A DNA stretch of 64,000 nucleotides, taken from IMG/VR virus record IMGVR_UViG_3300023371_000083. One strand, written 5' to 3'. This DNA is from a virus (Duplodnaviria; Heunggongvirae; Uroviricota; Caudoviricetes). The notes beneath the pieces are model-generated. The model had not been told where the DNA came from. It searched no databases and saw only the letters and a list, made by a program, of their open reading frames with translations. Both the position numbers and the translations under genes were made by a program. Each line of letters opens with the position of its first letter. Positions within the stretch are counted from its first letter, which is position 1. Shown here in pieces: positions 6,171 through 46,952 of this stretch.

Positions 6171-7385
6171 ATGTTTGAATTAACAGGAAAATATAATACG
6201 GCTAAAGTATTTACTAACAATATTGAGCCAGAAGCAATCTCTCAGATTATCGAACTCTGCAACCAGGAATTTGTAAAAGAAAGCAAAATAAGAATTATGC
6301 CAGATGTTCATGCTGGTGCTGGCTGTACTGTTGGCACCACAATGACAGTCAAAGATAAGGTTGTCCCTAATTTGGTTGGTGTAGATATAGGCTGTGGCAT
6401 GTTGACAACAGCGATTGCAGAAAAAGAAATTGACTTAGCAAAACTAGATAAGTTGATTCATGATAAGATTCCGGCAGGATTTAATATCAGAAAGAAAAAA
6501 CATGATTATTTACGATATACAGACCTCACAAATTTAAGATGTATCGACCATGTAGATATGACAAGAGCAGAGCTGAGTCTAGGAACGCTTGGGGGCGGTA
6601 ATCACTTTATTGAAGCAGATCGTGACGATGATGGAAATATCTATATTGTCATTCATTCTGGAAGCCGACGCCTTGGTCTTGAAGTTGCAAAGTATTATCA
6701 AGAAGAAGCGTATAGATACCTTAACGGCTCTACAAAAGAAGATGCTGAGAAATTAATTGCAAAACTGAAATCTGAAGGTAGACATAGAGAGATCGAATCC
6801 GAGTTGGCAAAATTAAAGAATGTTAAACGAACCAGCGTTCCAAAACACCTTGCTTATCTGGAAGGAAAGTTATTACAGGATTATATTTGGGATATGAACA
6901 TTGTTCAGAAATATGCAATGTGGAATCGCTGTGCAATGATGGATGAAATCATTGATGGCATGAATTTGACAGATATTGGTTCTTTTACAACTATTCACAA
7001 CTATATTGCACCTGAAGGCGGAGACAGAATTATCTTGCGTAAAGGCGCTGTGGCAGCGTATGAAGGTGAATGGTTATTAATTCCTATTAATATGAGAGAT
7101 GGTAGTTTGATTTGTGAAGGCAAAAGTAATCCAGAATGGAACTATTCTGCTCCTCATGGTGCTGGTCGTATTATGAGTAGAAGTCAAGCGAAATCTACTT
7201 TTAAAATGGATGATTACATTGCAGAAATGAAAGATGTATATACAACTTCTGTTTCTACAGACACTTTAGATGAATGTCCTATGGCATACAAGAATATGCA
7301 GGAAATCATTGATAATATCGGTGATACGGTAAATGTGTTGAAAGTAATTAAACCGATTTATAATTTCAAAGCTGGTGGAGAGTAA
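6171..7385 (+). CDS. rtcB: RtcB-family RNA ligase (3'-phosphate/5'-OH ligase)
   Basis: Motifs MPDVHAGAGCTVG, GGGNHFIE and APHGAGR match RtcB metal-binding and GMP-binding signatures. Confidence 0.85.
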   Translation: MFELTGKYNTAKVFTNNIEPEAISQIIELCNQEFVKESKIRIMPDVHAGAGCTVGTTMTVKDKVVPNLVGVDIGCGMLTTAIAEKEIDLAKLDKLIHDKIPAGFNIRKKKHDYLRYTDLTNLRCIDHVDMTRAELSLGTLGGGNHFIEADRDDDGNIYIVIHSGSRRLGLEVAKYYQEEAYRYLNGSTKEDAEKLIAKLKSEGRHREIESELAKLKNVKRTSVPKHLAYLEGKLLQDYIWDMNIVQKYAMWNRCAMMDEIIDGMNLTDIGSFTTIHNYIAPEGGDRIILRKGAVAAYEGEWLLIPINMRDGSLICEGKSNPEWNYSAPHGAGRIMSRSQAKSTFKMDDYIAEMKDVYTTSVSTDTLDECPMAYKNMQEIIDNIGDTVNVLKVIKPIYNFKAGGE

Positions 7386-7400
7386 AGGAAAGGTGTCTCA

Positions 7401-7754
7401 ATGTTTCGGAAAATATTTACAGGCAAAAACAGCAGCACAGTGGTAGTCGATGGCAAAACTTATGAAGTCGAAGGCAATAACATTATGATTCGCAACGGCA
7501 AAATTATTGTTGATGGTAAAGTAATCAATGATGAAAAAGTCGGTGTTTCTAAAGTGATTGTTACAGGAAATTGCGAAAGCATTAATTGCGATGGCTCTGT
7601 AGAAATAAACGGCGATTCTGGCAGGGTTAAATGTGGAGGTAGTTGTCATATTGGTGGAAATGTCACTGGTGGTGTTTTTGCTGGTGGATCTGTAACCTGT
7701 GGAAATATTGAAGGCGATGTTCTTTCCAGTGGAAGTGTAATAGCTAAAGGATGA
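7401..7754 (+). CDS. bactofilin-like / polymer-forming Gly-rich beta-helical protein
   Basis: Repetitive V/G-rich segments (GxVxGxV...), typical of a bactofilin domain. Confidence 0.4.
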   Translation: MFRKIFTGKNSSTVVVDGKTYEVEGNNIMIRNGKIIVDGKVINDEKVGVSKVIVTGNCESINCDGSVEINGDSGRVKCGGSCHIGGNVTGGVFAGGSVTCGNIEGDVLSSGSVIAKG

Positions 7755-7776
7755 TATAAATGAAAGAAGTGATATA

Positions 7777-8157
7777 ATGAAAAATTTTAGAGCATTTGCT
7801 GATGAAAATTATGATTATTATGAATTAACAGAAAACTTGGGTTACAACAATTCTGGATACGGCATTCATAAATATCTTCTTCCAAAAGGTGCAATTTTTG
7901 TACATGATAAGCACGATCAAGTACATGGTTCTATTGCAGATGGTTGTTTAACGCTTTGTTGGACTCCAGATGGTAATTGTTATGGATGTTTGGGAGGCGA
8001 AGGGTTACATTTACACGCAGCATTCAAGAGAACATCTATGTTTAAATTAGTAAAAAAAGGAAAAAGCGCAATGATTGCAGAGGTTGAACATGTAATCGAG
8101 GATTTAGAGAAAAAATTGGAAGAAGCAAAAGAGAAATTAAAAGAAATGAGGGAATAA
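7777..8157 (+). CDS. hypothetical protein with C-terminal coiled coil
   Basis: ORF track. Confidence 0.4.
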   Translation: MKNFRAFADENYDYYELTENLGYNNSGYGIHKYLLPKGAIFVHDKHDQVHGSIADGCLTLCWTPDGNCYGCLGGEGLHLHAAFKRTSMFKLVKKGKSAMIAEVEHVIEDLEKKLEEAKEKLKEMRE

Positions 8158-8158
8158 A

Positions 8159-9274
8159 ATGTCATACATTTATCAACGCCCTTTACATGGGAAAAGCATT
8201 GGAGTGGTTTTTGGCTCTTTTGCACCATTACATAAAGGTCATATTGATTTAATTATGAAGGCTAAAAAAGAAAATGATGGTGGATGTATCGTTATTGTAT
8301 GTGGTTATGATGGCGACAAAGGTGAACCTATCATTCCCCACAATAAAAGATACAGATATGTAAGAGAATATTTTAAAGACGATGAAATGGTTGCGGTGTT
8401 CCCTGTAAACGATACAAAAATTGGGGCAAATGCGTATCCAGATGGATGGGAAGTCTGGCTAAAAGAATTTTTTAATATCTGGAATGTTGCTGTGACACCG
8501 GTATCAAAAGAAGCAAAAAGAGTATGGTATGTCGGAGATCCTAATTATCATTTTGACCTTGAGAAACGTGGTGAATGTGCAATTCTCGTAAATAGAATGC
8601 TAAATCCAATTTCAGCAACAATGATTAGAGCTAATCCTTATAAATATTGGGATATGATGGCTTATACATTTCACGGAGCATTTAGTCACAACATTCTAAT
8701 TACTGGTACTGCAAGTGAAGGGAAAACAACATTAGTAAAAGATTTGGGTAAATATTTTAATACAACATATAGTCATGAGATGCCAAGAGATTATATGGAG
8801 GAAATGTGCGTTCATGATACCGAATTAGACGCAGTTGATTTTCTCTCTTTTCTTCAGGGGCAATACAATCTGAATCGTAAAATGATTAATTCCCCATTAA
8901 ATAAAGGCGTATTTTTTGCAGATACAGATGCTCTGGTAACGCAAATGTATGCAAAATATTATGCTATGGATGATACATGTAAAATGACAAAAGATGATTA
9001 TTATATGGTGGTCTCTCATGTCGCACATGCATTAACTAAACGCAGTAGATGGGACAAGATTTTTGTTTTAATTCCTCATGGTAATTTTGTGAATGATAAT
9101 TCACGCTATATGGAGCATAGCGGTATGAAAGAAAGGATGGAATTGTATAAAATTCTTGAATCTTTTCTTATTGCTCATGGGTTAATGGAAAAGGTAACAA
9201 TTTTAACAGGAGATTATTATGAGAACTATCTTGCAATTAAGGAATATACGGAAGGGGTGTTAAATCATGGGTAA
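8159..9274 (+). CDS. nadR: NadR-like bifunctional NMN adenylyltransferase / ribosylnicotinamide kinase
   Basis: N-terminal nucleotidyltransferase motif GSFAPLHKGH (HxGH), followed by the P-loop GTASEGKTT of the kinase domain. Confidence 0.65.
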   Translation: MSYIYQRPLHGKSIGVVFGSFAPLHKGHIDLIMKAKKENDGGCIVIVCGYDGDKGEPIIPHNKRYRYVREYFKDDEMVAVFPVNDTKIGANAYPDGWEVWLKEFFNIWNVAVTPVSKEAKRVWYVGDPNYHFDLEKRGECAILVNRMLNPISATMIRANPYKYWDMMAYTFHGAFSHNILITGTASEGKTTLVKDLGKYFNTTYSHEMPRDYMEEMCVHDTELDAVDFLSFLQGQYNLNRKMINSPLNKGVFFADTDALVTQMYAKYYAMDDTCKMTKDDYYMVVSHVAHALTKRSRWDKIFVLIPHGNFVNDNSRYMEHSGMKERMELYKILESFLIAHGLMEKVTILTGDYYENYLAIKEYTEGVLNHG

Positions 9275-9986
9275 AACAAAAGATATCTTAAAAAGTGAAT
9301 TTGTTAATGGTTATACAACCTTTGATAAATTATTTATGGGGATCATGGTATTAATGCAAATCATTGTTTTTGCAATTACTCCTGATTCGCCTATTGCGAT
9401 TATCGCCGGCATTAGTGGTGTGATTTCTGTTGTGCTTTGTGCTAAAGGAAAAATTTCCTTTTATTTTATTGGCTTCATTCAGACGATTACATATTTAATT
9501 CTGTCTTGGCAGAATCGATTTTATGGAGAAGTAATTGAAAATGTATTTTACCTTGTAACAATGGTGTGGGGAATTTTTATTTGGAAAAAACACTTGAATA
9601 CAGATGATAGTGGTTCTACACAGGTTGACGCTTTGAAATTTACACCAAATCAATGGATTGCATCTAGTGTATTAATTATTATTGCCACCATTGTTATGGG
9701 GTGGATGCTTACAAAGATTGGGAGCAATCAGGCATATACAGATGCAGCAACAAATGTAATTGCGATTTTTGCTCAATTATTAATGGTAAAAAGATATAGA
9801 GAGCAGTGGCTGTTCTGGATTGTAATTGATGTACTTTGCATTAAACTATGGGCTGTAGCAGGAAACTGGTCTATGGTAGCAATGTATATTGGATGGACGG
9901 CAAATTGTATTTATGGTTGGAAAAACTGGAGTGAATCTGTATCTTATAGAAACGATGAAAAACTAATGGTGATTAGGGAGGTATAA
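9267..9986 (+). CDS. pnuC: PnuC-like nicotinamide riboside transporter
   Basis: Multi-TM protein of 239 aa. Overlaps nadR by 8 nt, matching the classic nadR-pnuC pairing. Confidence 0.55.
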   Translation: MGKTKDILKSEFVNGYTTFDKLFMGIMVLMQIIVFAITPDSPIAIIAGISGVISVVLCAKGKISFYFIGFIQTITYLILSWQNRFYGEVIENVFYLVTMVWGIFIWKKHLNTDDSGSTQVDALKFTPNQWIASSVLIIIATIVMGWMLTKIGSNQAYTDAATNVIAIFAQLLMVKRYREQWLFWIVIDVLCIKLWAVAGNWSMVAMYIGWTANCIYGWKNWSESVSYRNDEKLMVIREV

Positions 9987-23279: not shown

Positions 23280-24008
23280 ATGGGAAAGGTTTAGATTCAT
23301 CCATTTACAACAAAAAAACCAATCACAATGATTGGATATATGGCTGGTGTGTGTTATGGAACAGATGTATCTGACGATGAAAAGAATTACAAAAGAGGTA
23401 TTGATTGTCTAAAATCGCAGCATGGCAGAACATGGGAATTTCCAACAGTATAGATGACGATTGAAGGGTACTCTGCAAGAGTTATGAGAGAAATTTATAC
23501 TCATATTGGTGGATCTCCTTCTCGTCTGCAAGCAAGTACAAGATATATTAATTACTCTGATTTTGACTATTTTACCCCTCCTTCTATTGAAGCTAATCCA
23601 GTAGCAAAAATTATTTATGATTCAACAATTATGAATAATATTATGGCTGGATTAAACGAACTAGAAGAAATGGGTATCCCTAAAGAAGATTCTGCTAATG
23701 CACTACCTCTTGGTATGGAATCTGTTATGGTCGGCAAATATAATTTTAGAACGCTGGCGGATATGTCACATCAAAGAAAATGTGTAAGAGCGTACCATGA
23801 ATTCAGAGGATGGTTTAATGATTTAGAAAATTCTTTATCTGAATATTCTGAAGAGTGGGCATATCTTGTAAAAGAACATTTTATGCCTAAATGTGAACAT
23901 CTGTTACATTGTCCAGAAAGATTTTCTTGTGGTAAATATCCTCCTAAAAATGTTGTTATGGAACTGATTGCACAGTGGAAAAAACAACAGGAGGCAAAAT
24001 CAGAATGA
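23280..24008 (+). CDS. thyX: FAD-dependent thymidylate synthase ThyX with in-frame TAGs (23292, 23451)
   Basis: AGVCYGTD...QHGRTWEFPTV[TAG]MTIEGYSAR...THIGGSPSRLQASTRY matches ThyX blocks. RBS AAAGGAAGAG. Confidence 0.65.
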
Positions 24009-24526
24009 AAAAATCATTAATTTTACTTGTCGGAAAATCTGGTTCCGGTAAAACGACAATCGCAGAATAGCTTGAAAAGAATTATGGACTAACAATGCTT
24101 GAATCATATACAACAAGGCAACCCAGGTACGAGGGTGAAAGAGGACATATTTTTGTTACAAAAGAGGAATTTGAAAAAATGCCTAACAAAGTGGCGCACA
24201 CATTTTTTGATGGAAATGATTATTGGGCAACACAAGAACAATGTGATGAATCAGATGTCTATGTGATCGATCCTGATGGCATCAAAACATTTAAAAGAAT
24301 TTATAATAGCCCAAGACCATACAAAATTGTTTATTTAAAAATAAGTCCGATTGTTAGATTTTGGCGAATGACAAAACGTGGTGATGGCGTAATGAAATCA
24401 ATTAGACGTATTATGCATGACCATAAGAAATTTGGAAAATTTGAAAATGAGTTTGGCGTAAAAATTATTAAAAGAGACCCTGTTTGGAGCATTGCCAAAC
24501 AAATTCATGAAATGAGGTCATTATGA
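24005..24526 (+). CDS. guanylate kinase-like P-loop kinase with in-frame TAG at 24068
   Basis: LVGKSGSGKTTIAE[TAG]LEKNYGL...LESYTTRQPRYEGERGHIF: a guanylate-kinase-like P-loop plus the S-TTR-PR-GE-G motif. RBS GGAGG. Confidence 0.6.
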
Positions 24527-24978
24527 TGAAATATTCTACAGTTGTGTAGATTTCACATCCATATGGCGGATTAAAGGAAAACGAGGATATTGTGGCTGAG
24601 TTAATTATTGAACTCAGTCGCAAATTCCCGGAGTATTTATTTATCTCGCCAATCCACGCTTTTTCTTTCACATACAAAACAGAAAAGAAATATCAAGACG
24701 GTCTTGATAAATGTTTATGGTTGTTAGATCAGTGTGATGAAATGTGGGTTTTTGGCAAATATAGAGAAAGCATTGGATGTATGGCTGAAATCGAATATTG
24801 TAATGAGCATCATATTTATTATCAAGCAATCAATGACAATTGTTTAAAAATCATGGCAGAACCAAGAAAGTGCTGTGATTGTGGATTGATGGAAATAGAT
24901 GAGCAATATGCAATTTGCAATAAAAGTTTTGTAAGTCAGATTTATGAAAAGGTTTGTGGTAAACATGGACAAGAATAA
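24523..24978 (+). CDS. hypothetical protein (nucleoside 2-deoxyribosyltransferase-like/DUF4406-like?) with TAG at 24547
   Basis: ATG overlaps the previous TGA. The frame is continuous through the TAG into ORF 24592. Confidence 0.35.
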
Positions 24979-25129
24979 AAAATTATTGCTTGAGTTGATT
25001 TGTGATAGACAGATTGCATTATTATTACAAGACAGTACAAATTATGAATCTGCAAAATATAAGCAATTAGAGAAACTGAAAGTATATGTCAAAGATATTA
25101 AGGAGGGTGTTGCTATTGAAGGTAATTAA
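24944..25129 (+). CDS. hypothetical small protein
   Basis: ORF track; its 3' end overlaps the nrdD start. Confidence 0.3.
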   Translation: MKRFVVNMDKNKKLLLELICDRQIALLLQDSTNYESAKYKQLEKLKVYVKDIKEGVAIEGN

Positions 25130-27356
25130 AAGAAACGGTACAGAAATGTAGTTTGATTCAAATAAGATTAAAATAGCGATTTTAAAAGCATTTGTTGATG
25201 TAGATGGTGAAGAAAGCCAGTATGCAAAAGACAAGGCGAGAGATATTGCTAATTATATCGCATCTTTAAATAAAACAATGTCTGTAGAAGAAATCCAAAA
25301 TATCGTTGAAGAAAAACTGATGGCTAGCAATAGAAAAGATGTAGCCAGAGCATATGTTCGATACAGATAGATGAGAGATATGGCAAGATCCCAGTACGAT
25401 GGTTTTATGCAAGCCATTAGGGAAAAGGTTGAAGCTTCAAATGTTCAAAATCAAAACGCCAATGTAGATGAACATTCTTTTGGTGGCAGAACCGGCGAGG
25501 CAACAGACACAATGATGAAAAAGTATGCTCTTGACTATTGTGTGTCAAAAATGGCTAGAGACAACCATCTGAATAATATTATTTACATTCATGATCTGAA
25601 TTCTTATGCCGTAGGCATGCATAACTGCCTGTCAGTACCTTTAGATGATTTGCTGAAAAATGGGTTTAACACAAGACAGACTGATGTACGTCCTGCAAAT
25701 TCTGTTAATACAGCATTTCAGCTTGTAGCAGTGTTATTCCAGTTGCAATCACTAATGCAGTTTGGCGGCGTGTCCGCTACCCATATTGACCATACAATGG
25801 TTCCTTATGTGAGAAAGAGTTTTTATAAACATCTAATGGATGGTTTTAAGTATATTGAGGGCGTAGCAGAGCCTAGAAAATATATGTATCAAGAAAACGC
25901 TGATGAATTTTGGACTCAATACACTGATATTGATGACAAGGATTTAAAAGCAGCGCATCCTAAAGCATACCAATACGCAATGGATATGACGACAAAAGAG
26001 ACATATCAGGCAGTTGAAGGTATGTAGCATAACCTCAATACACTGCAGAGTAGATCTGGTAATCAGCTTCCATTTAGTTCTGTGAATTACGGCACGTGTA
26101 CTCTACCAGAAGGCAGAATGGTAACAAAAGCGTTGTTAGAAGTATCAATCAATGGTATCGGCAAACTACATAGAACGTCTGTGTTCCCTTGTGGTATTTT
26201 CCAGTGTATGAAAGGCGTAAATAGAAAACCTGGCGATCCTAACTACGATTTGTTCCAATTGGCATTAAAATCTACAGCACAGAGACTGTATCCCAATTAT
26301 GCCAATGTGGATTGGAGTAATAACGCAGGATACGATATTAATGACCCTAGAACATATTTTAGTACAATGGGTTGTCGTACAGCCAACCTGTTCGACATTA
26401 ATGGCTTAGGTCAGCTTAAAGATGGTAGAGGCAACATCTGTCCTGTAACAATCATTATGCCTACATTGGCTATGATGGCAAAAGAACTGTACGAAGACCA
26501 GACTTACGATACACATGCTAATATTGTAGATATTTTCTTATACATTCTCGACCAAAAAATTCATGAGGCAAAAGATATGCTTATTGAACGATTTGAGTGG
26601 ATTTGTAAACAGAATCCAAAATCTGCAAAATTCATGTATGAAAATAATCTAATGGCTGGTTATGTTCCAGAAGAAGGAATTAGAAGCGCTTTAAAACATG
26701 GCACCCTAGCTTTAGGTCAGTTAGGTCTTGCGGAAACACTGCAGATTCTAATTGGTTGTGACCATACAACAAAAGAAGGTATGGATTTGGCAAAACAGAT
26801 TGAGCAGTTATTCAAAGATAGATGTGCTGAGTTCAAACAAGAATATCAACTGAATTTTGGTGTTTATTATTCTCCAGCAGAAAATCTTTGTCATACAGCA
26901 ATGAGAAAATTCCAAGAACAATATGGCGTGATTGAAAAAGTATCTGATAAAGATTATTTTACAAACTCTATGCATATTCCTGTATGGCATAAAATGACAC
27001 CATTTGAAAAGATTGATTTAGAAGCGCAGTTAACAGGATACTCTAGTGCTGGATGTATTACATATGTAGAACTTGAATCTTCAGTAAAACATAACATCGA
27101 GGCACTTGAAACACTTGTTAATTATGCAATGGATCAGGATATTCCTTATTTTGCAATTAATGTTCCCAATGATACATGTTTAGATTGTGGTTATTGCGAT
27201 GAAATTAATGATGTTTGCCCCATGTGCGGAAGCAAAAGAATTCAGCGTTTACGTAGAGTAACTGGTTATTTAACAAATGATTACAAAACAGCATTTAATT
27301 ATGGCAAACAACAAGAAGTTGAAATGAGAGAAAAGCATAGTGGGGTATCCGTATGA
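25116..27356 (+). CDS. nrdD: anaerobic ribonucleoside-triphosphate reductase NrdD (class III) with three in-frame TAGs (25149, 25368, 26025)
   Basis: ATP-cone VIKRNGTEM[TAG]FDSNKIKI...AYVRYR[TAG]...; core ...EGM[TAG]HNLNTLQSRSGNQLPFSSVNYG; C-terminal Zn ribbon and glycyl-radical RVTGYL motif. TTG start follows RBS AGGAGG. Confidence 0.8.
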
Positions 27357-27898
27357 GAATTATAGATATTACAACATGCAGTGTTGCTGATGGTTTAGGG
27401 TTCCGTTTGGTAATTTGGTGTGCTGGATGTGAACATCATTGTGAAGGATGTCATAATCCTGAATCATGGGATTGTAACGCTGGACACAAACTAACAGATA
27501 AAGACCTTGATACAATATTTGATCAACTAGAATTTGATTATATTAAAGGAATCACATTTAGCGGAGGAGATCCTTTGCATCCACAAAATGTAGAGCAAGT
27601 TTATAGACTCTGCAGAGTGATTAAAGAAAATTATCCGGATAAAACAATTTGGATATATACAGGATATAAATTTGAGAACATTTATTACGAACCTGGTTGT
27701 TTTATGACTCAAGATTGTAATCCAGCAAGGGATCTTAGAAACGAAGTGCTGAAATATATCGATGTGCTTGTTGATGGCGAATTCGTTCACGACAGAAGAA
27801 ATGTAACAATTGCTTTTCGAGGTAGCGATAATCAAAGACTAATTGATGTTCCAAAATCATTAAAGGCGTGGAAAGCAGTTATTTATGAGCAGGAGTAA
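27353..27898 (+). CDS. nrdG: anaerobic RNR activating protein NrdG (radical SAM)
   Basis: Cys cluster CAGCEHHCEGCHN. Length and position immediately after nrdD fit NrdG. Confidence 0.75.
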   Translation: MRIIDITTCSVADGLGFRLVIWCAGCEHHCEGCHNPESWDCNAGHKLTDKDLDTIFDQLEFDYIKGITFSGGDPLHPQNVEQVYRLCRVIKENYPDKTIWIYTGYKFENIYYEPGCFMTQDCNPARDLRNEVLKYIDVLVDGEFVHDRRNVTIAFRGSDNQRLIDVPKSLKAWKAVIYEQE

Positions 27899-27929: not shown

Positions 27930-28547
27930 ATGGGAAAAGAATTGAGTTTAAGAAATTAGAATCTTGTTATCGGAGTGATGCTCCTTTGGGGTTTTATTGT
28001 AAATGTATTTACATGTGCATTTGGTGGAGAATATTTTGCTTCAATTAGTCCAGTGAAATTATTAATAGGGTATTTTATTACAGCCATTATTGGTATTTGT
28101 ATGAGCGCATTTTCAGAAAATCCGTTTGTAAGTTTCATTGGTTATAACTTGGTTGTATTACCTATCGGCGCTGTATTAAGTGTTACATTACAAGATGTTG
28201 CAAAACTAACAATCCTTATGGCGTTTGGTGCAACTGCGTGCATGACATGCTTAATGATGATAGCAGCAACATTGAAACCGCAATTGTTTTTATCAATGGG
28301 TAGAATTCTGTTTATGAGTTTGCTTTTTGTAATTATAATTGAGCTTCTAATGGTCGTGTTTTGCGGTGTATCTCCAACAATAATTGACTTTGTTGTGATT
28401 GCTTTGTTCTGTTTATATGTAGGATATGATTGGGCAAAGGCGCAAGAGATGCCAAAAACATTGGATAATGCGGTAGATAGTGTTGTTGGACTGTATTTGG
28501 ATATTGTAAATATTTTTATCAGACTCATTGATATTATGGAAGATTAA
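27930..28547 (+). CDS. BI-1/YccA-family (TMBIM) membrane protein with TAG at 27957
   Basis: Seven-TM-like hydrophobic profile. C-terminal GYDWAKAQEM...GLYLDIVNIFIRLI matches the Bax-inhibitor/YccA family. Confidence 0.5.
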
Positions 28548-32798: not shown

Positions 32799-33713
32799 AT
32801 GCAATTTTGTAGCAAAGAAGATATTAAAGATTATATTGAAACAAGAAAAGCAGATATCAAAAAATCCGTTCAAAAAAATACCAGCATGGGATTTGATGTT
32901 CCCACACTGGCGATTATTCAAGTCGGTAGCAATCCTGCATCTAACAAATATGTAAATGGCAAAATTAAGGATTGCGAAGAAGTTGGAATGAAAGCTGTAT
33001 TACATAAATTTAATGAAGACATTGAACCTGTAGATTTTGGAACAGAGATTATTAAAATCATGCATGATGAAATGATTCATGGTGTAATTATCCAGAAACC
33101 ACTGCCCGAAAAATTAGAAAAATATTTTGATAAGTTTGTAAAAATGATTCCAAAGAAAAAGGATGTCGATGGATTTAGAAAAGATACTGAGTTCGATCCT
33201 TGTACTCCTAAAGGAGTGGTGGATTATATTGAAAGCAGACAGGGTAAAGACTGGCTGACAGGTAAAGATGTTGTCATTATCAATCGTACAGAATTGGTTG
33301 GTAGGCCACTTGCAAAAATGATGTTGGATAGAAATGCGACAGTTACTGTTTGTCATAGTAAAACAGAGCGTCTGCGGAATCATTGCCAGTATGCAGACAT
33401 TGTTGTGAGTGCTATTGGCAAACCTAAAATTTTAATTAGAGACTATGTTAAGCATGACAGTGTATGTTTTGATGTAGGAATTAGTTTTGATGAAAACGGA
33501 AAAATGTGTGGCGATTTTGACAGAGATAACGTAATGAAAATAACAGATTATTGCACACCTGTTCCTGGCGGCGTCGGTTTACTGACAAGAATTGCTCTTG
33601 TAGAAAATGTATTAAAAGCATATGAAAATCAGAAGTATAGAGCAAGTATGATTCCTAATGCAGAAAAGGATGAAAACAATGTGGGGAATTACAAGTCTTA
33701 TGAGAGAAAATAA
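32799..33713 (+). CDS. folD: bifunctional 5,10-methylene-THF dehydrogenase/cyclohydrolase FolD
   Basis: [18 protein letters not shown]...IIQKPLP...[14 protein letters not shown]...VPGGVGLLT are FolD signature blocks. Confidence 0.75.
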
Positions 33714-33960
33714 TCACACTGGAGCCAACGAAATTGATACATATATTTCAGAAGTAAATAGTCAGGATAACTTTATTGCTGAAGTTAATTCTTTGCCGAT
33801 GCCGGAAAGTTATCCTCACGAAAATGATAGATTTTACATTCCAGAAGAATATAAAAATATGACTAGCAAACAATTAAAAAATGCTAAAAAAGCATGGGAA
33901 AATTATTTTAAAGAAAGAGAAAAAATGAGGGAATCATTATTTGGAGAAGGAGCAACTACC

Positions 33961-34401
33961 ATGAATAAAAAAGAAATTAAAATTAAATATTTTACAGATG
34001 AAATCGAAAAGCTTCGCTATATTGATGGAAAATCTGATTGGATTGATCTTAGAGCAGCAGAAGATGTTTCAATTAGTGCTGGTGAATTTAAACTAATCCC
34101 TCTTGGTGTGGCAATGCAATTACCAGAAGGTTACGAAGCACATATTGTTCCTCGTAGTTCTACATTTAAAAATTTTGGCGTGATTCAGACAAATCACATG
34201 GGCGTTGTTGATGAAACATATTGCGGCGATAATGATCAGTGGTTTATGCCTGTATATGCGGCGAGAGATACTGTAATTAAAACAAACGACAGGGTTTGCC
34301 AGTTTAGAATTGTAGAACATCAGCCAGCGATTGATTTTATTGAAGTTGAAGAGCTGGGAAATGATGACAGAGGCGGTCATGGCAGTACAGGCAAGCAGTA
34401 A
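33961..34401 (+). CDS. dut: dUTP diphosphatase (trimeric dUTPase); possible N-terminal extension from the ATG at about 33700
   Basis: IVPRSS, YCGD and C-terminal RGGHGSTG motifs. Good RBS GGAGAAGGAG before MNKKEIK. Confidence 0.7.
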
Positions 34402-35103: not shown

Positions 35104-35130
35104 ACCTTGATATATCAACGATATAAGAAG
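35090..35130. other. candidate attP/att core (perfect palindrome TTGATATATCAA overlapping the recombinase stop)
   Basis: Position lies between the miaB fragment and the serine recombinase; palindrome read directly. Confidence 0.25.
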
Positions 35131-36770
35131 TTCTGTGTTAAGCCATTCTTAAATTTAATTGCCAAAACTGTGCTGTTATCACCCACAGAAACATAATCAA
35201 TAACATTATTGAAGAAATCTTGTAGTTGTTTTTCATCAACATTCACGGCTAATTCTTGATAGGAAATTTCTTTTCCTCTGCCGAGTTCCCAGTCGATGAT
35301 ACATCTATCAAGTAATTTATTGTCAACCAGTGGAAGCATTGCATCTTTATTCTGATTTGCTGCATGTATCTGCTGGTTGATTTCATTTAATTCAGCAGTT
35401 AATTTTGTTCTTTTTTCGAGATAATCTCTTTCAGGCATACTGTCATCAGAAAACAGATATAAATCATCCAACCTTTTTAAAGCTCTCTCGATTTTTTCTT
35501 GACGCTGTTTAAATACTTCTGTGTCAGAATATTCAGTATTATGACTGACTGTGATAAGTTTATTCGGCTTGTAACCACATTTTAAAACTTCTTTTATATC
35601 CTCGATACTCTGTTGACTGATATATGCAACATCTTTGAAGGCTTTACCAGATAGTAATCTTTCTTCTAAGTTAGTAAAGTCTTTACTGTTTTGAATGGTA
35701 ATCATATTACTCATATAATTTAAAATGAAATTACCAAGATATGTATCCGTGATAGCGCCTTTACTCATACAGGTATTACCGTGCATTCTGTTAGAGCATC
35801 TATAAGAAGAAGGGTGGTATCCATTTTTTCTTTTAGTATCTTTGTGTGCAGATGTGCCTCCGCCACATAATCCACATTTTAATAAACCGCTAAAAGAATG
35901 TGTATGACCGCCCACAATTCTTCGTCTGCATGGTTCAGCTCTTTTTTGAAGAATTGCATTCACTTTATCAAACTGTTCTTGTGAAATAATTGCTTCATGA
36001 TTATTTGGTACAATGACCCATTCTTCTTCTGGTCTAATCTTACCTCTACCACTTTCTTGGTAGTTGTATCTTAGTGTACCAATGTAGAAGGGGTTTCTTA
36101 GCGTCTGTGTGATGGATTTAGCATACCAGTTACCATTTCTCTTGGTTGGAATCTTTCGTTCATTTAAGAGCCTTGCAATGCGTAATACGGATGGTTCTCT
36201 TTCGTATTCATCAAAAATCATTTGTACAATCTTCTTTTCATCTTCATCAACAACTGGATACATGCTTTCTGGATCAAATTTGTATCCTAATGGAGCCGCT
36301 GTGCCATTCCATTTACCTTCTTTGGCTCGTGAAATCATTGTTGCTCTTACTCTGACTGCAGTCATTTCTCGTTCCAACTGAGCAAATGTCATGATGATAT
36401 TCAACATTGCTCGACCCATAGGTGTGTCTGTCTGAAAATTATCAGTCTTACTTACAAACTGAATATCTAAATCTTCAAACTCATCCCACATTTTTGCGAA
36501 GTCACCAATGTTTCTAGAAATTCTATCTAGTTTCCAAACTACAACATGAGAAAATTCTTTATTTCTCAACCTTTGCATCATACTCTGAAAAGCGGGACGA
36601 TCTGTATTCTTAGCAGAATACCCAGCATCTTCAAAAATTTCATAATCTTTGACACCAAGAACAATCTCACAATAATTGATTAAATCTTTTTTCTGCATTG
36701 GAAGTGAATCTTTATCTGCTTGATAAATTGTACTTACTCGTACATAGATTGCTGCTTTACTGTTTTTAAT
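35115..36770 (-). CDS. large serine recombinase (integrase); N-terminus extends upstream of the track's M to include the catalytic YVRVST; probable non-ATG (ATT) start after RBS AAAGGAGGT
   Basis: Resolvase domain (AAIYVRVST found by extending the frame), recombinase domain, Cys-rich zinc ribbon, coiled coil. Stop is TGA. Confidence 0.85.
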   Translation of the reverse strand: MKNSKAAIYVRVSTIYQADKDSLPMQKKDLINYCEIVLGVKDYEIFEDAGYSAKNTDRPAFQSMMQRLRNKEFSHVVVWKLDRISRNIGDFAKMWDEFEDLDIQFVSKTDNFQTDTPMGRAMLNIIMTFAQLEREMTAVRVRATMISRAKEGKWNGTAAPLGYKFDPESMYPVVDEDEKKIVQMIFDEYEREPSVLRIARLLNERKIPTKRNGNWYAKSITQTLRNPFYIGTLRYNYQESGRGKIRPEEEWVIVPNNHEAIISQEQFDKVNAILQKRAEPCRRRIVGGHTHSFSGLLKCGLCGGGTSAHKDTKRKNGYHPSSYRCSNRMHGNTCMSKGAITDTYLGNFILNYMSNMITIQNSKDFTNLEERLLSGKAFKDVAYISQQSIEDIKEVLKCGYKPNKLITVSHNTEYSDTEVFKQRQEKIERALKRLDDLYLFSDDSMPERDYLEKRTKLTAELNEINQQIHAANQNKDAMLPLVDNKLLDRCIIDWELGRGKEISYQELAVNVDEKQLQDFFNNVIDYVSVGDNSTVLAIKFKNGLTQNFLYR

Positions 36771-37340: not shown

Positions 37341-38063
37341 TTATTTCTTTTTATCTAAAATAGGTGTACCACCTTTATTAGAAATATTGTAACCGAATAT
37401 TGCACCAATGTCTCTGGTTTTAATATATGTATAACCATCTTTATTAATCATTTCGACAGTATACTCTTCGCCATCAACAATAATATTTTCTCTTACAATC
37501 ACTTCATCGTCCTCCTTATATTTTTCAGGAATTTCAATTTCCCAGTAATATTTTTGCTGTTTTATGAAGCGATCCCAAGGCATTTTAGAACAAATTTCTT
37601 TTTTATTATAAGGATCGTTAATAAGAACATTGTCACCATCCATTGCATAACAAAGAATATAATGTCCAGAAGATGTAAAATCGCCTTTTCCAGCAACTGC
37701 AATAATCCAATTGCCATTCTCTAACGATTTTCTAACTTCTTTGTGAACAGATGCGTTTGGTTTATTATAACAGTTAGCACTGTTCATCATTCTACATTTT
37801 ATTCCATACTCAGCCATCTGTGGTTTGAAATAAGCGTAGTATGTACCTTGTTTTAATGCTTTATATCCATGTGATTTAGACCATTCAGCAGTATCGATAG
37901 GTGTTACTGTTTTGCCGGTTATTGAAGAAATAACCATAGCAGAACAAGTAATCCCACATCCTTCTGCTTTAATGGTTGTCTGTTCTCCTTTGGTAGAGTA
38001 ATCATGGTTTGCCCATTTTGGATCTGTCTGATAATACATCACAGGTCTGCCTAATTTATTCAT
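37341..38063 (-). CDS. endolysin: C39-like/NlpC-type cysteine peptidase domain plus C-terminal cell-wall-binding repeat domain
   Basis: YQTDPKWANHDY...GCGITCSAMV...GHYIL peptidase signature. Start at MNKLGR follows RBS GGAGGTG. Sits last in the late operon. Confidence 0.6.
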   Translation of the reverse strand: MNKLGRPVMYYQTDPKWANHDYSTKGEQTTIKAEGCGITCSAMVISSITGKTVTPIDTAEWSKSHGYKALKQGTYYAYFKPQMAEYGIKCRMMNSANCYNKPNASVHKEVRKSLENGNWIIAVAGKGDFTSSGHYILCYAMDGDNVLINDPYNKKEICSKMPWDRFIKQQKYYWEIEIPEKYKEDDEVIVRENIIVDGEEYTVEMINKDGYTYIKTRDIGAIFGYNISNKGGTPILDKKK

Positions 38064-38101
38064 TGGTTTCACCTCCAAACAATAAAAAAAGAACAGGGGG
38101 G

Positions 38102-38428
38102 TTAACCCTGTTCAATAATGTCTGTTTTTAACTCGGCATCTGTATTAGAAATATCAATACGAAGTTCTGTGACAGCACGTTTAATATAAGCTTTAACTTC
38201 TTTTTCATCAAAAGTGATTTTATATTTATTCAGAAATTCCACCATTGCATCCCAAACCTACTGTGCTTTATCTTCTATTTCGCCAGTGATATGTAACTCA
38301 TTCGCTGCAGAAACCAGTGTTTTTGCAACTTTTAAAATTACTGTTCCTTTCAGCATAGGAATCCAATATTTCTTACTAAAGAATACAATACAAATAATTA
38401 ATAATTCAAAAATCCATGTAATATCCAT
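38102..38428 (-). CDS. holin-like small membrane protein with in-frame TAG at 38258
   Basis: RBS AAGGAGG; N-terminal TM; 108 codons ending TAA. Immediately upstream of the endolysin. Confidence 0.45.
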
Positions 38429-39443: not shown

Positions 39444-40265
39444 TTATTGTTTTCTAAGCTTATCTCGAATCTTTTTTTCAGAATCATATATGTTAATATA
39501 ATGTGTGCCAAGAATTTTAGGGATACGATTTATTTGAGAAATCAGTTCTTCTAATTCAGCGATATCCAGACTACATTTATGATCTGTACCTTCCATAGTT
39601 TTGTCTAATGTAATATGTCTTTCAATAATATCTGCACCTTTAATAACAGAAATCAGAGTAGGCAGCGTATCAATTTCATGACCGCTATATCCAATTGCTA
39701 AAGTGGGGTACATGTTTTTTAATCTTGTAATAACATTTAAATCCAACTCATCGTCAGCACATGGGTAAGTACTATTACAATGTAAAATACCAAGTAAATT
39801 ATCTAAGTTATATATTGCATTTAAAACTTCTGGTTCAGTGCTCATCCCATCAGAAATAATAACAGGAATACCCCAATCATTAATGGCATGGATTAATTCC
39901 ATGTCTGTAATACATGCACTTGGAATCTTGATAAAAGGTATATCATAACTATATTGCTTCATAAATTCAACACTATTTACATCCCATACACTAACAGTCC
40001 ACTTAATACCAATTTTTTGACAAAACTGATTAATAATATCGTATTCTGTTTTACCAAATTCAATTGACTTTTTATATTCAAGATAAGTCATTTCTTCACC
40101 TTTCCAGATGCGTTTAACATTTTTTTGATGTTCAGGAACACAAAAGTCTGGATCACGCTTCTGAAACTTTACAACATCAACACCACATCGTTTTGCTTCT
40201 TGAATTAACTGTAGTGCTGTGTATAATTCTCCGTTATGATTAATTCCAATTTCTCCAATAAACAT
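39444..40265 (-). CDS. NeuB-family nonulosonic-acid (Neu5Ac/KDN-9-phosphate-type) synthase, lacking C-terminal SAF domain
   Basis: FIGEIGINHNGEL...GVDVVKFQ is the NeuB/SpsE signature. Confidence 0.65.
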   Translation of the reverse strand: MFIGEIGINHNGELYTALQLIQEAKRCGVDVVKFQKRDPDFCVPEHQKNVKRIWKGEEMTYLEYKKSIEFGKTEYDIINQFCQKIGIKWTVSVWDVNSVEFMKQYSYDIPFIKIPSACITDMELIHAINDWGIPVIISDGMSTEPEVLNAIYNLDNLLGILHCNSTYPCADDELDLNVITRLKNMYPTLAIGYSGHEIDTLPTLISVIKGADIIERHITLDKTMEGTDHKCSLDIAELEELISQINRIPKILGTHYINIYDSEKKIRDKLRKQ

Positions 40266-40267
40266 AT

Positions 40268-40915
40268 TTAAAACTCCTCTTTAATCCTTACAATATCGTC
40301 TAGTTCAATTGTAGAACTTTCAATAATGACTAAATCTGTAATGGCTTTTACTTGATGAATTGTGCCAGCCGGAATTCTGATAGTGTCACCAATATTTATA
40401 CGAAACTCTTTTCCGTCTACTTTGGCAATCCCAACACCTTCAACAACATGCCATGTCTCATGTTTTTTAACATGATATTGTAGAGATATATTTAATCCTG
40501 CATCAATATGCAATCTTTTCATTGCATAGTTTTTAGTGATGTCCAGTAAATACTCTTTACCCCAACGCTTGTTGATTACAGTTAAACTTTCGGCATCATC
40601 TTTAGATATCAAATAATTTGCATTACAACCCTTATCATCTATGTAAACATCTGCAGCGGGTTTGCCAAATCTCAGTTCATGCTATTTTACACCCCAATCA
40701 GATAATTGTTGCGTTGTAAGATCGAACCAATCAATTCCAGTTTCTGTGCCACGAGCAGTATAATAAACCACTTTATTTCCGTTATCATACAAAGTGTTTG
40801 CCATTTGTATCATATCCATATATGGTTTTGCGTCCGCATAATTTTCTTCTTGACTACAGATAGTTCCATCAATATCAAAAATGTACTTTAGAGGTTTCGT
40901 ATTTGAATTTTGCAT
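40268..40915 (-). CDS. HAD-IIIA phosphatase (KdsC/nonulosonate-9-P phosphatase-like) fused to a C-terminal cupin domain; in-frame TAG at 40682
   Basis: FDIDGTI (motif I) ... YYTAR ... [TAG]HELRFGKPAADVYIDDK (motifs III/IV) span the TAG, followed by a small cupin beta-barrel. RBS AAGGAGG before M19. Confidence 0.6.
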
Positions 40916-41543
40916 ATTCGTAATCCTCCTTTGTATCAATATCGATGGTTTGTTCTTCGGGAATTTCAATCAGTGCCAAATCGTCTTTCAGCATATATCC
41001 ATCTAATTTAAATAATTCTTTATTAAAAATATGGAAGCAATGTGCGGCTTGATATAATGGATCAATTTCTTTTGTGGTTAATTTTTGATAATCAATATCC
41101 GTTTTAACATTGATATCTTTATCCCAAAGCCAGTTTTGAAATCTTTTAACGCTTGTGCCATATTCTTTTTTGCTCGCTAAGAATTGGCCGATTGATGAAA
41201 TAATAGTTTGTGGTGTTAGAAAAATGAGGCATGGATTTAGAAACATTAAGTATTTTTCTGGTACGCCAAGAATGTCTTTAAAAATAAATCGTAATGGAGT
41301 TTCTGCTTCTGCTGTAGCAGGGTGACGAATAATAATTTGTACATTTGGATATTTTTTAGCAATATCAATTAACTCTTTGTCACAAACCAAGACATATGTA
41401 TTTAGACCATAATAACTTTTAATATAATCCAGTTTCTTACAACAGATTTCAAACATACAAGTATCACCAATTGGTAAAGTCTGTTTGTTTGGTAATCTCT
41501 GACTACTCAATCTTGCTGGCACAAAAATTCCTACATGTTTCAA
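40875..41543 (-). CDS. CMP-sugar synthetase (acylneuraminate/KDO cytidylyltransferase family)
   Basis: N-terminal PARLSSQRLPNKQ matches the NeuA/KdsB signature. Confidence 0.6.
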   Translation of the reverse strand: MKHVGIFVPARLSSQRLPNKQTLPIGDTCMFEICCKKLDYIKSYYGLNTYVLVCDKELIDIAKKYPNVQIIIRHPATAEAETPLRFIFKDILGVPEKYLMFLNPCLIFLTPQTIISSIGQFLASKKEYGTSVKRFQNWLWDKDINVKTDIDYQKLTTKEIDPLYQAAHCFHIFNKELFKLDGYMLKDDLALIEIPEEQTIDIDTKEDYEYAKFKYETSKVHF

Positions 41544-42358
41544 TATAAAATACCTCCTTTTTCTCGTGTGTATCTCCCGCCACTATTATTGCAATAAAAA
41601 CACGGCATATCAGATGTAAACTCTGCAGAAGTTACACTTTTTACAAAATCTAAATATTTTTTAGATGATAGCATTTCGGATAATTTGCTTTCTTTTAAAT
41701 CACCTAAAATATATTTTTTTTGATTTTCACAATCGTTTCTCACATTACAGCATGGGCTAACTGTCCCATCATAATTAATTCCAATAAAATAAATAGGCTC
41801 ATAACACGGAGCCTCTCTTTTTATCTTAGAATATTCTGTTAAATTACCTCCACGATCAGAAATATTTGCTGTTTCTAACCATGAGTAATAATAGAGAATT
41901 GTTTTCTCATTGTATCTACCTACAAAATAATGGTCATATTCAATGATATCTGAAACATTCCATTTTTGTAATTGTTGCAAAACAAAATCTCTGCCTTTAT
42001 AATCGTAATCCATAATAGTTAATTCATCGACTAACATTGTTTGAAGAATTTGCTCATTAATATAATCGCCATTCGTGTTTGACACAATTGTTGTATCAGG
42101 AAAATAATGTTTTATTAATTGCATTGCATCACGCAATTCTTCGTGATTTGAAAATGGCTCATTATAACGTGAAAATGAAAATTTTCCTTCATATCCATTA
42201 ACTTTTAATTCTTGGAGGAGAGTGGTAAACACATTATAATTAAGCCATTCAATTTTACTTTTGCGGTCTATATAACTATTTGGACACCAGTTGCATTTGC
42301 GATTGCAATAAGAAAATAATTCTATTTCCACCAATCTAAGTTTTGAAATAATATCCAT
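41540..42358 (-). CDS. radical SAM protein (CxxxCxxC: CNRKCNWC) with C-terminal Cys-rich (SPASM-like) region
   Basis: Direct motif read. The true start MDIISK follows the upstream TAA by 1 nt. Confidence 0.6.
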   Translation of the reverse strand: MDIISKLRLVEIELFSYCNRKCNWCPNSYIDRKSKIEWLNYNVFTTLLQELKVNGYEGKFSFSRYNEPFSNHEELRDAMQLIKHYFPDTTIVSNTNGDYINEQILQTMLVDELTIMDYDYKGRDFVLQQLQKWNVSDIIEYDHYFVGRYNEKTILYYYSWLETANISDRGGNLTEYSKIKREAPCYEPIYFIGINYDGTVSPCCNVRNDCENQKKYILGDLKESKLSEMLSSKKYLDFVKSVTSAEFTSDMPCFYCNNSGGRYTREKGGILY

Positions 42359-42359: not shown

Positions 42360-43055
42360 TTATTCAAATCCTTTTATCCATTGATTAAATGCTGTTTCAT
42401 CGTTAATATATTTACTAGGTGTAACATCTTGATAATTATAAAAATTTTCAGATAATTGACGTTGATAATTCATGGTTGCATTTATCAATTCACCTACATA
42501 CTAAGTTGTATATTGTATAGTATATTTATCTACTAACAAACACCCTATATTTTTAGGCGGGATATAATTCACTACAGAATCAAGATATAAATAGCGATAT
42601 GATAATGGCGAAGATAATTTTAAAGATTGATAATAATCCATAAGATTCTATACACAGTCATTAGATATGATACATAAAACTTTATAGTCAGGAGATAATT
42701 CGCCATCATCCATTAAAAACCTTAAAGCAGCAACACGATGTCTACCTTCATACACATAAAAACATCCTTTATTTTCTATAGGGTAAACACAAAGAGGGAA
42801 GTACATTCCTTTAGATAGTATCTCTTCACCAAAAGCTTTTTGCTTTTCTTTATATTTTTTTATAAACGGATTATCAATATTTTGGCTCCATATATCTTTG
42901 TCATTGTCAAGAGGGTCTGGAAATAAATATTGGATACTTATAAACTTGAAATCTAATATATTGCTGCGTATAAGGGGGCGTAAGGCATAATATATATAAT
43001 CCGAATGATATATTTTAGAAAATTGCTCTACAGAACAATTAATTCTAGTCAACAA
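42360..43055 (-). CDS. ParB/sulfiredoxin-like nuclease-domain protein; 135-aa ORF-track part ends in TAG (42648) and continues in frame through a second TAG (42501) to TAA at 42360
   Basis: YEGRHRVAALR ParB motif. The extension has no RBS of its own and ends exactly at the next gene's start. Confidence 0.45.
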
Positions 43056-43069
43056 AATATCATCTCCTA

Positions 43070-43225
43070 TTATACTATTTTATTACCATTAGAGTCATAC
43101 CCTAACGCCGTTAAAAGATGTAGTACATCTAATAAAAACTCATCAGGCACTAATTTCACTTCAGTATTATTTTTATCACAAGTTCTCAGTCCTGCTTTTA
43201 CTAATCTAAAATATAATTCTGCCAT
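43070..43225 (-). CDS. small protein (51 aa), TAATG-coupled to upstream gene
   Basis: Direct read; RBS GGAGGT. Confidence 0.3.
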   Translation of the reverse strand: MAELYFRLVKAGLRTCDKNNTEVKLVPDEFLLDVLHLLTALGYDSNGNKIV

Positions 43226-45725: not shown

Positions 45726-46952
45726 TTAACCTAAGAATTTAATGATAACTGCACCAGGTTGTCCATTTGCACCATGACTTGAACCAGAAGCATTACCAGA
45801 ACCGCCATTGCCACCTGTACCATAAGAACCAATAGAACAGCCACCAGATTGTCCAGATGCTAAATTTCCGTATGATGTACCTACAGCACTACCTCTATTG
45901 AGACGCGTACCTACAAACTGAGCACCTGTGCCACCCTTACCACCTGCAACGGAGTATAAATTACCAAAAGATGTAGTTCCTCCTTGTTCGCCATTATAGC
46001 CACTTATATAAGTCGCAGATGAAACTTGTACATCTTTTTTCATACCTCTTACCCCTGCGGCGCCTATAGTAATTGTATATGATGCACCTTTTGATAAAGT
46101 TGTAGTATATAAAGCACCAGAACCACCACCAGCACCACCATTTGCGCCTGCATATGTGGATTTATCAGAAGTTACTCTAATACCACCAGCACCGCCTCCA
46201 CCACCACCATGTAATTCGATGGAGTACTGACCATCATCTGGTACAGTGAATGTGCCATTGGAAGTAAAAGTCCATGTATACCCAACAGGGGTGTCCGCAG
46301 ATGAGAAAAACTTCCTTGCTACATTATCTACACCAACATGACTAACTTTTATTTTTCTAGAAACATTGTTTATACCTGTCTATTTTTTTTTAACTTTTCT
46401 AGACACACCAGTTGATGTATGTACAGTGATTGTTGTGCTATTTAAAAAATATGGTATATTAGCATCACACCATTCCTTTGTTGGTTCATTCCCAGAACCG
46501 AAACAAGCAGTTAAATCAATCAACATTGGCTCTTTTCTATAAGTAACTGCAGAAGTATTTACTACGAAGTTTCTAAACACCCATGTTCCACTCACATCTG
46601 TAAATGCTTTTGTGTTTGATGTCATTTCCCAATTGTCGGTTTTCTAATGATATGCCCATACTGACAGACAATTTGCGTCAGAAGCCCAGTATTCAAATCT
46701 ACCATCGCTAAATGTTGAGTTTACTGGTGCTTTAACCATACATCGAATGTAATAAATATGGTTAACAACAGGTGCATTTAACATAACAGTGAAATGAGAG
46801 TCGCCACTAGCAACCGGAAATACAAACTCTTCATATGCATTCACAGATGGTAAAGTCGCACCACTTTTAGTCCAAGCAGAAGGTTGGGGAAGTAAATTGG
46901 TGAGTCCAATTTGAATCTCTGATGTACTACTAACATACATTCCTTTAGCCAT
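45726..46952 (-). CDS. glycine-rich tail fiber/structural protein (about 408 aa) with in-frame TAGs at 46380 and 46644
   Basis: ORFs 46644..46952, 46380..46625 and 45726..46043 are all in one frame, joined by TAGs. C-terminal GGGGGAGG / GTGGNGGSGNASGSS runs. RBS AAGGCGGTGAG. Confidence 0.5.

Follow-up and report, generated by a model that had tools for sequence, protein, structure and literature searches.

The 64,000-nucleotide stretch of the Caudoviricetes virus record IMGVR_UViG_3300023371_000083 (hereafter, the window) carries a cassette at 39.4-43.1 kb, all on the minus strand, encoding a NeuB-family synthase, a HAD phosphatase joined to a cupin, a cytidylyltransferase (CT), a small radical S-adenosylmethionine (SAM) enzyme (rSAM) and a fifth protein, here called X. 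Gene content, protein families, conserved order, intact catalytic motifs and TAG read-through establish a five-gene module, conserved among phages, whose type of pathway is known and in which two conserved enzymes are unassigned; its substrates, product, timing, acceptor and target we infer. We lean towards a module that makes a cytidine monophosphate (CMP)-activated nonulosonic acid of the 2-keto-3-deoxynononic acid (KDN) type via a phosphorylated route. An earlier note on this DNA had named four of the genes, each with family-level support here, and had overlooked the conserved fifth gene at 42360-43055; its NeuB, HAD, phosphomannose isomerase (PMI)-type cupin, CT and radical SAM/SPASM family calls are upheld by sequence and profile matches.

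Protein families of the cassette and their conservation

The NeuB-family nonulosonate(-9-phosphate) synthase (39444..40265, minus strand, 273 amino acids (aa)) matches PF03102 with E 2.3e-62 (211 bits, cut-off 22.1). It has no C-terminal SAF (antifreeze-like) domain, the one that in the bacterial NeuB and PseI equivalogs bears the substrate contact R314. Scores against those equivalogs are 210 bits for the N-acetylneuraminic acid (Neu5Ac) synthase model TIGR03569 (cut-off 399.65; profile positions 3-278 of 329, where the protein ends) and 153 bits for the PseI model TIGR03586 (cut-off 340.25). Judged by alignment with N. meningitidis NeuB, the metal ligands and catalytic residues are intact: E25, K53, Q55, K129, S132, Y186, H215, E234, H236 and D247 are kept, and two positions differ, E134 being Cys and N184 being Ser. 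E134 adjoins the place where a sugar 6-phosphate would lie (PMC8208679). The best PDB match, 6NCS, is likewise SAF-less; solved bacterial NeuB, PseI and SpsE score 77-118 bits, and human NANS, in an unverified copy of its sequence, scores 169 bits at 34% identity and shares the FQK, GYSGHE and ERHITLDKT blocks. The window NeuB thus resembles, at the level of sequence, synthases of phosphate routes. The animal NANS/NANP/CMAS route is alike in using a phosphorylated substrate that is then dephosphorylated; the phage differs in lacking a SAF/AFP domain and a GNE-type epimerase/kinase, and its likely substrate is mannose-6-phosphate (Man-6-P), not N-acetylmannosamine (ManNAc)-6-P.

Relatives of the window NeuB occur in only 3 of 50,697 deposited phage records, and the closest cellular SAF-less NeuBs are at most 49% identical (80 bacterial loci from Chlorobi, Ignavibacteria, Anaerolineae, Streptomyces and others). 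A small HAD phosphatase adjoins NeuB in 12/19 viral loci versus 0/80 bacterial loci, and at these same bacterial loci no HAD, cupin, rSAM or X gene was found beside NeuB. These bacterial contexts do not account for the cassette, and a close host homologue was looked for without success.

The second gene (40268..40915, minus strand) encodes an N-terminal HAD phosphatase of ~100 aa and a C-terminal type II PMI-like cupin of ~110 aa, 215 aa in all if one TAG (40682-40684) is translated. The earlier note had described a HAD-cupin fusion, and both domains do lie in one frame, although that frame is not open in the standard code. The cupin open reading frame (ORF; 40268-40612, minus strand) matches PF01050 MannoseP_isomer above the gathering score (E 3.7e-14; 53.3 bits, cut-off 23.6; profile positions 9-115 of 116), Cupin_2 is also above its Pfam cut-off, and PF01050 matches the read-through protein at 2e-13. 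The cupin is a member of the type II PMI family by these profiles, with PMI activity predicted. The HAD ORF (40685-40915, minus strand, 77 aa) begins MQNSNTKPLKYIFDIDGT. Motifs I (DIDGT) and II (TARG) precede the TAG and motifs III (GKP) and IV (IDDK) follow it intact, so the motif set is complete only with read-through; a match to phrog_1238 (1e-28) likewise extends across the TAG. A KdsC-like HAD, which the note had listed for HMM searches, found no support: no KdsC model is among the NCBIfam and Pfam matches, which give weak hits to HAD-IIIA and HAD_PNKP, and the best PDB matches are 9IQW (7e-12) and 1XPJ. A KdsC-type (C0) KDN-9-P/Kdo-8-P phosphatase identity was therefore dropped in favour of a small, ~100-aa, phage-typical HAD family. 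Unbroken 215-aa HAD-cupin fusions are found in related viral loci L108, L201, L202 and L203, separate HAD and cupin genes in L002, and a PMI-type cupin is fused to a phosphatase in at least five lineages.

The CT (40875..41543, minus strand, 222 aa) belongs to the CMP-ulosonate synthetase family. It matches PF02348 CTP_transf_3 (30.8 bits, cut-off 22.6) and aligns over its full length with PseF TIGR03584 (1.9e-11; 44 bits, equivalog cut-off 205.7). Its N-terminal CTP-binding motif, read from the sequence, is PARLSSQRLPNK (pattern PAR..S.RLPNK). The CT adjoins rSAM in 24/24 related viral loci.

The rSAM (41540..42358, minus strand, 272 aa) carries the cluster motif CNRKCNWC (CxxxCxxC) and SPASM/twitch-type C-terminal cysteines (C..CC..C...CxxC), and matches PF13186 (5e-10) and PF04055 (2.7e-5). 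Its best solved relative is BtrN (phmmer against PDB, 1.1e-17, residues 11-263), the 2-deoxy-scyllo-inosamine dehydrogenase of butirosin synthesis (PDB 4M7T), which is also a small rSAM of similar length with auxiliary-cluster cysteines. The similarity is distant and the context, a phage CMP-sugar pathway, is different; by analogy, a BtrN-like rSAM may point to oxidation or epimerisation of a sugar carbon. A viral scan with the single rSAM sequence gave no matches and an alignment-based scan succeeded. The rSAM family comprises 298 clusters at 90% identity, mainly on phage-sized metagenomic contigs of up to 192 kb.

The gene for X (42360..43055, minus strand) has 231 codons, in-frame TAGs at 42648-42650 and 42501-42503 included, and unites orf135 (42648-43055) with two tiny ORFs downstream. 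X aligns end to end with unbroken ORFs in L001 and L002, with a conserved C-terminal PSK-IN-E motif. No match was found in Pfam (including ParBc), PHROG or NCBIfam, and a Pfam scan of 68 X-family members gave no consistent family; a profile search recovered 336 representative relatives, and a profile of X against PDB sequences gave only marginal matches (E 0.07-1.5), every one of ParB/sulfiredoxin (Srx) fold. An AlphaFold2 model of the L001/L108 homologue from a 68-sequence alignment reached pLDDT 93 and pTM 0.90 (a model of X from a three-sequence alignment, pLDDT 32, was discarded), and the top 46 Foldseek matches of the homologue model share the ParB/Srx fold, followed in X by a helical C-terminal domain. 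Among the sole invariant residues of the family is G-x-H-R, the phosphate-binding motif of this fold. Because of the fold match and this motif, X is predicted to be a nucleoside triphosphate (NTP)-binding-type protein, and it may point to a nucleotide-dependent step. Ligands of the fold include CTP in ParB-like members and ATP in sulfiredoxin and serine kinase. X differs from ParB/KorB/Noc CTP switches, sulfiredoxin and the SerK/SbnI serine kinases in its lack of a ParBc match and in its C-terminal domain. The X family is a new family tied to rSAM/CT/NeuB cassettes.

The module turns up in at least 24 viral loci of IMG/VR, usually next to tail-fibre genes. Independent viral contigs arrange its genes alike, as X, rSAM (one to three copies), CT, HAD(-cupin) and NeuB, so that chance does not explain the arrangement. 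Among 24 IMG/VR loci with an rSAM at least 34% identical to that of the window, CT is present in 24, NeuB in 21, HAD in 15, X in 14 and the cupin in 7. L001/L108 is a 179-kb standard-code contig with the same tail-cassette-lysis synteny as the window. X and rSAM are duplicated in L002, where the cassette lies between two fibre genes; the module is present in L111, follows a 2,049-aa YomF-like protein in L114 and, in L201, has a fibre gene on one side and, directly after it, an integrase. In L202, a 190-kb code-15 phage, a KdsA/DAHP-synthase-like gene and a Glyco_transf_8 (GT8) gene come before the module (L202:7188-12908), the latter being the only recognised glycosyltransferase beside any cassette copy. 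Four of the five cassette proteins have no PHROG family. The five-gene module is conserved and mobile. In L002, a 140-kb phage, the stretch downstream of the cassette (L002:11374-16368) has genes for a subtilisin-like protein and for two more radical SAM/SPASM proteins, both large (459 and 449 aa), and a 634-aa fibre-like protein of L002 contains three repeats of the motif TSTxTTKDKHVSxALAKGWEDHKN.

In-frame TAG codons

TAG is translated in this phage. Re-read with TAG as a sense codon, the window holds 64 genes with ~18,900 codons; 24 in-frame TAGs fall in 16 of the 64 genes (sites within 22068-57576), and all genes then end at TAA or TGA. Their distribution is uneven: the first 26 genes (6,504 codons) and the serine recombinase have none, the block at 22-34.5 kb has 10 and the late block the other 14, of which one is in HAD-cupin and two are in X. 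No TAA, TGA or frameshift interrupts any TAG-bearing gene. NrdD (25086-27356), with TAGs at 25149, 25368 and 26025, aligns over residues 10-753 with the solved 8P23 (E 7e-123), and read-through also restores ThyX (23451), a P-loop kinase, the holin (38260), baseplate proteins (52495 and 51304) and fibre proteins (Gly-rich fibre, 46646 and 46382). A Gly-rich tail protein of 408 aa (45726-46952) is whole only if two TAGs are read, and after the second come 112 open codons without any possible start codon, which is independent evidence of read-through. JGI, ENA and Logan samples independently yielded an identical sequence, with its TAGs, and the TAG of HAD-cupin is found in four independent assemblies.

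The inserted amino acid is apparently tyrosine, to judge from residues aligned with the TAGs. Across 80 related IMG/VR phages with NrdD 75-86% identical to that of the window, NrdD TAG-314 lies opposite Tyr in 78 and Phe in 2, and TAG-95 opposite Tyr in 46, Asn in 18 and Phe in 7. Over all TAG sites with locally reliable alignment, the majority residue is Tyr at nine, Phe at two and Gln at none, and a global recoding of TAG to Gln was rejected on this count. Tyr also matches at holin, baseplate, orf192 and HAD sites: the L108 holin, in an alignment of 80% identity, has Tyr at the window TAG site, and the TAG position of HAD is Tyr (GVK-Y-H) in L001/L108, L002, L114, L201 and L202, and also in solved homologues as distant as 9IQW and 1XPJ.

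As a reciprocal control, of ~49 TAGs in the NrdD of relatives, 34 lie opposite Gln in the window protein, the pattern of code 15; many of these relatives (NrdD loci L118-L197, contigs of 110-217 kb) have such Gln-aligned in-frame TAGs. One phage family therefore seems to contain two different amber reassignments. In a large phage survey, the reassignments seen where phage and host codes differ were TAG to Gln and TGA to Trp alone (bioRxiv 10.1101/2021.08.26.457843), and other phage recoding papers mention just Gln for TAG (PMC9523058; PMC10607447). Code-15 gut phages described in these papers are similar in having TAGs in middle and late genes, none in early genes or the recombinase, and a large genome with a tRNA array. 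The window differs in that its TAGs align with Tyr or Phe and never Gln, are sparse (24 in ~18,900 codons) and are accompanied by no CUA tRNA in the accessible sequence.

The tRNA array of this phage (window coordinate ~85-90 kb; L116:50-1687 and L117:100-5294) has 8-13 genes with standard anticodons only (Met twice, Trp, Tyr-GTA, Ile-TAT, Ser, Gly, Leu and others) and is cut off by the end of a contig. Its tRNA-Tyr is atypical, being called by ARAGORN and not listed by Rfam at the gathering score. Permissive ARAGORN and Rfam searches, and a variant contig with 13 tRNAs, gave no CUA anticodon, and two metagenome scans for sequence upstream of the array returned no matches. As no CUA tRNA was found, the mechanism by which TAG is translated is one that we can only infer. 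Near the array, L117 also has an ArfA-like ORF (weak match) and a TROVE-like ORF (faint match).

Pathway, expression and alternative explanations

In the proposed phosphorylated route to a KDN-type sugar, the cupin domain would convert fructose-6-phosphate (F6P) to Man-6-P, NeuB would join Man-6-P and phosphoenolpyruvate (PEP) to give KDN-9-P, the HAD domain would dephosphorylate KDN-9-P to KDN and the CT would convert KDN to CMP-KDN. The BtrN-like rSAM, of a C-H-oxidising or epimerising type, and the NTP-binding X would probably tailor the sugar or its precursor, and the whole module would be made during active infection, while suppression operates. The fusion of the HAD to a PMI-type cupin fits this chain from F6P to CMP-KDN, and for a module with a PMI-type cupin KDN would be the most economical product; given the conserved rSAM and X, the product is probably a modified nonulosonate. 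Phosphate-route KDN pathways use a synthase, a phosphatase and a CMP-synthetase, and free-sugar routes have no phosphatase (PMC6200933). The logic is that of CMP-KDN synthesis in Bacteroides thetaiotaomicron and Prymnesium parvum (PMC6200933): a sugar phosphate would be the substrate of a NeuB-family synthase, after which a dedicated HAD phosphatase and a CT of PF02348 would act. Unlike that pathway, the cassette is phage-encoded, has a small phrog_1238 HAD fused to a PMI cupin instead of a KdsC-like enzyme, a SAF-less NeuB and extra rSAM and ParB/Srx genes, and its substrates are predicted ones.

Several observations weigh against this reading. No cassette enzyme reaches an equivalog cut-off, the HAD falls outside the KdsC/KDN-9-P phosphatase type, the comparison with NANS uses an unverified copy of that sequence, and rSAM and X are without an assigned role in a KDN pathway. 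Three of the 24 loci (L203, L206 and L208) have no NeuB; in L203 (L203:8390-9886) the rSAM and CT are 69% and 79% identical to those of the window and HAD-cupin is directly followed by an orf192 homologue, so the CT/HAD/cupin/rSAM set is able to persist without its own synthase. No Pfam glycosyltransferase, flippase or Maf-type transferase was found in ~96 kb, and no CUA-anticodon suppressor tRNA between window coordinates ~-9.9 kb and 86.7 kb, with at least 60 kb of the genome lying outside in both cases.

Expression bears on where the sugar would go. Between 44502 and 38113 the non-coding parts of the minus strand show no terminator-like site, which makes co-transcription of the cassette with the late genes likely. 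A promoter-like site lies directly 5' of gene X (43069..43098, minus strand; ATGACT-18-TATAAT, 10/12 positions, a consensus match only). Together with the TAG codons, these features suggest that the cassette is expressed in productive infection. HAD-cupin and X can be intact only in a TAG-suppressing cell, and the cassette TAGs argue against expression in an ordinary lysogen. With placement near fibre genes, lytic-phase expression makes decoration of the virion slightly likelier than conversion of the host surface, and we propose with low confidence that the acceptor is a virion tail or fibre protein.

A tentative hearing is due to the alternative of a lysogenic-conversion (moron) cassette, expressed from the prophage, whose CMP-sugar host transferases would place on capsule, wall polymer, S-layer or flagellin glycans, altering phage receptors or immune recognition. 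The phage is temperate, judging from its serine recombinase (35115-36698) and from the integrase right after the L201 cassette; a promoter-like site lies 5' of X, no phage glycosyltransferase was recognised in ~96 kb, and there is precedent in that the phage-borne enzymes epaA/epaB of an Acinetobacter baumannii prophage are able to remodel host nonulosonic acid, and with it the capsule (PMC12053666). Against conversion, three TAGs in two cassette genes require suppression, the recombinase and first 26 genes are TAG-free, as expected if TAG genes go unread in the uninfected or lysogenic state, and the cassette, with tail genes on one side and lysis genes on the other, lacks its own terminator and lies on the late strand. 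EpaA/EpaB share with the cassette a phage-borne set of nonulosonic acid enzymes, a CTP_transf_3 domain and sugar oxidation/reduction chemistry; they only epimerise host-made pseudaminic acid, via short-chain dehydrogenase/reductase and aldo-keto reductase domains, whereas the cassette would build its sugar de novo from start to finish, includes a radical SAM enzyme and is probably expressed in the lytic phase (PMC12053666 for EpaA/EpaB).

Rather doubtful is a different activated ulosonic acid (Neu5Ac, a legionaminic or pseudaminic type, Kdo or a new radical-SAM nonulosonate), with a cupin that is not a PMI. NeuB and CT scores below every equivalog cut-off, PseF as the best alignment of the CT, a conserved BtrN-like rSAM and ParB/Srx enzyme that plain KDN synthesis does not call for, and the added KdsA-like synthase of L202 all speak for it. 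The cupin, however, matches PF01050 above its cut-off, a dedicated phosphatase implies a sugar-phosphate substrate, and no aminotransferase, acetyltransferase, dehydratase, UDP-GlcNAc 2-epimerase or ManNAc kinase was found in or near the cassette, which argues against Neu5Ac, legionaminic and pseudaminic acids.

We consider it unlikely, taken as a whole, that the module makes an undescribed radical-SAM-tailored CMP-nonulosonate, with X a new nucleotide-dependent sugar enzyme (a kinase or a CMP-recognising non-canonical transferase), that the tail fibres of widespread large gut phages are so decorated and that the amber-to-tyrosine code is new for phages.

It is decidedly unlikely that the module stands outside glycan synthesis, with CT, rSAM and the ParB/Srx protein producing a small molecule or altered cytidine nucleotide that serves to modify DNA or to counter host defence. 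ParB/Srx domains do bind CTP or ATP, CT, HAD, cupin and rSAM remain without NeuB in three loci, and X weakly resembles the ParB-like portion of PD-Lambda-5_A, a defence protein; yet NeuB is present in 21/24 loci with its active site intact, ulosonic acids are what PF02348 enzymes activate, no DNA-modification genes lie nearby and the rSAM is like sugar-oxidising BtrN and unlike viperin. PADLOC matched the cassette to no known defence system.

Decay of the cassette, with HAD-cupin and X as pseudogenes broken by nonsense mutations, would account for three in-frame stops per 1.35 kb in the standard code and for the splitting of both genes by gene callers, and is highly improbable given that the interruptions are all TAG with no TAA, TGA or frameshift, that HAD motifs III and IV are whole past the TAG, that 24 TAGs are spread over 16 genes including NrdD (three), ThyX, the holin and baseplate proteins, that they fall at conserved Tyr sites (Tyr in 78/80 relatives at NrdD-314) and that the same sequence was assembled from several samples.

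Genomic setting and significance

The placement of the cassette between tail and lysis genes, as the earlier note had it, is borne out. Upstream are baseplate (DUF5048), Gly-rich and XkdX-like tail genes; downstream are two small membrane proteins, a Holin_LLH-like gene (38102..38428, minus strand, 108 aa, one in-frame TAG at 38258-38260; PF09682 matches residues 6-89, spanning the TAG), an endolysin-like Peptidase_C39_2 protein (37341..38078, minus strand; PF13529, E 8.6e-13) and then the large serine recombinase. A viral scan with the 387-aa tail protein found just 29%-identity relatives.

The Pfam families YonB, YomW, YomV and YomU sit just past the window edge, which marks the phage as SPbeta-like. 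Contigs carrying it are up to 107 kb long and reach window coordinate ~152 kb; ENA ERZ27248436 k141_1105663 (107,635 bp) and JGI Ga0216341_10001710 both run far past the window, and JGI 3300022753 is another sample with this phage. GC content is 28-37%, and a nucleotide similarity search against 50,697 phage records gave zero matches. P0328, the homologue of the YonJ-like protein in Anaerovoracaceae bacterium 41-7 (53% identity), is the sole named cellular relative seen for a structural-region protein and hints at a host in Clostridia (Peptostreptococcales). Elsewhere in the window, the early region (5708-9986) encodes PTH2, RtcB (RNA repair), a NadR-like nicotinamide mononucleotide (NMN) adenylyltransferase/kinase and a PnuC-type NMN transporter, a set for NAD salvage and tRNA repair of a kind linked to counter-defence. 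A nucleotide-metabolism block (32799-34401 and 23280-27898) holds FolD (tetrahydrofolate dehydrogenase/cyclohydrolase), a dCTP deaminase/dUTPase, ThyX, NrdD and NrdG, and a Bax1-I membrane protein is encoded at 27975-28547.

Reading TAG as Tyr here versus Gln in sister phages would, if true, widen the known code changes of phages; it also affects the annotation of such genomes, in which a cassette like this one is misread under the standard code. Nonulosonic acids at the surface serve as key signals when hosts and microbes, or phages and hosts, recognise each other, and complete nonulosonic acid pathways encoded by phages have so far been essentially uncharacterised. The module gives a handle on the functions of the BtrN-like rSAM and of the ParB/Srx-fold X, which represent two orphan enzyme families, and its presence in many large uncultured phages bears on whether phages use sialic-acid-like sugars for glycosylation of their virions or for remodelling of host glycans.

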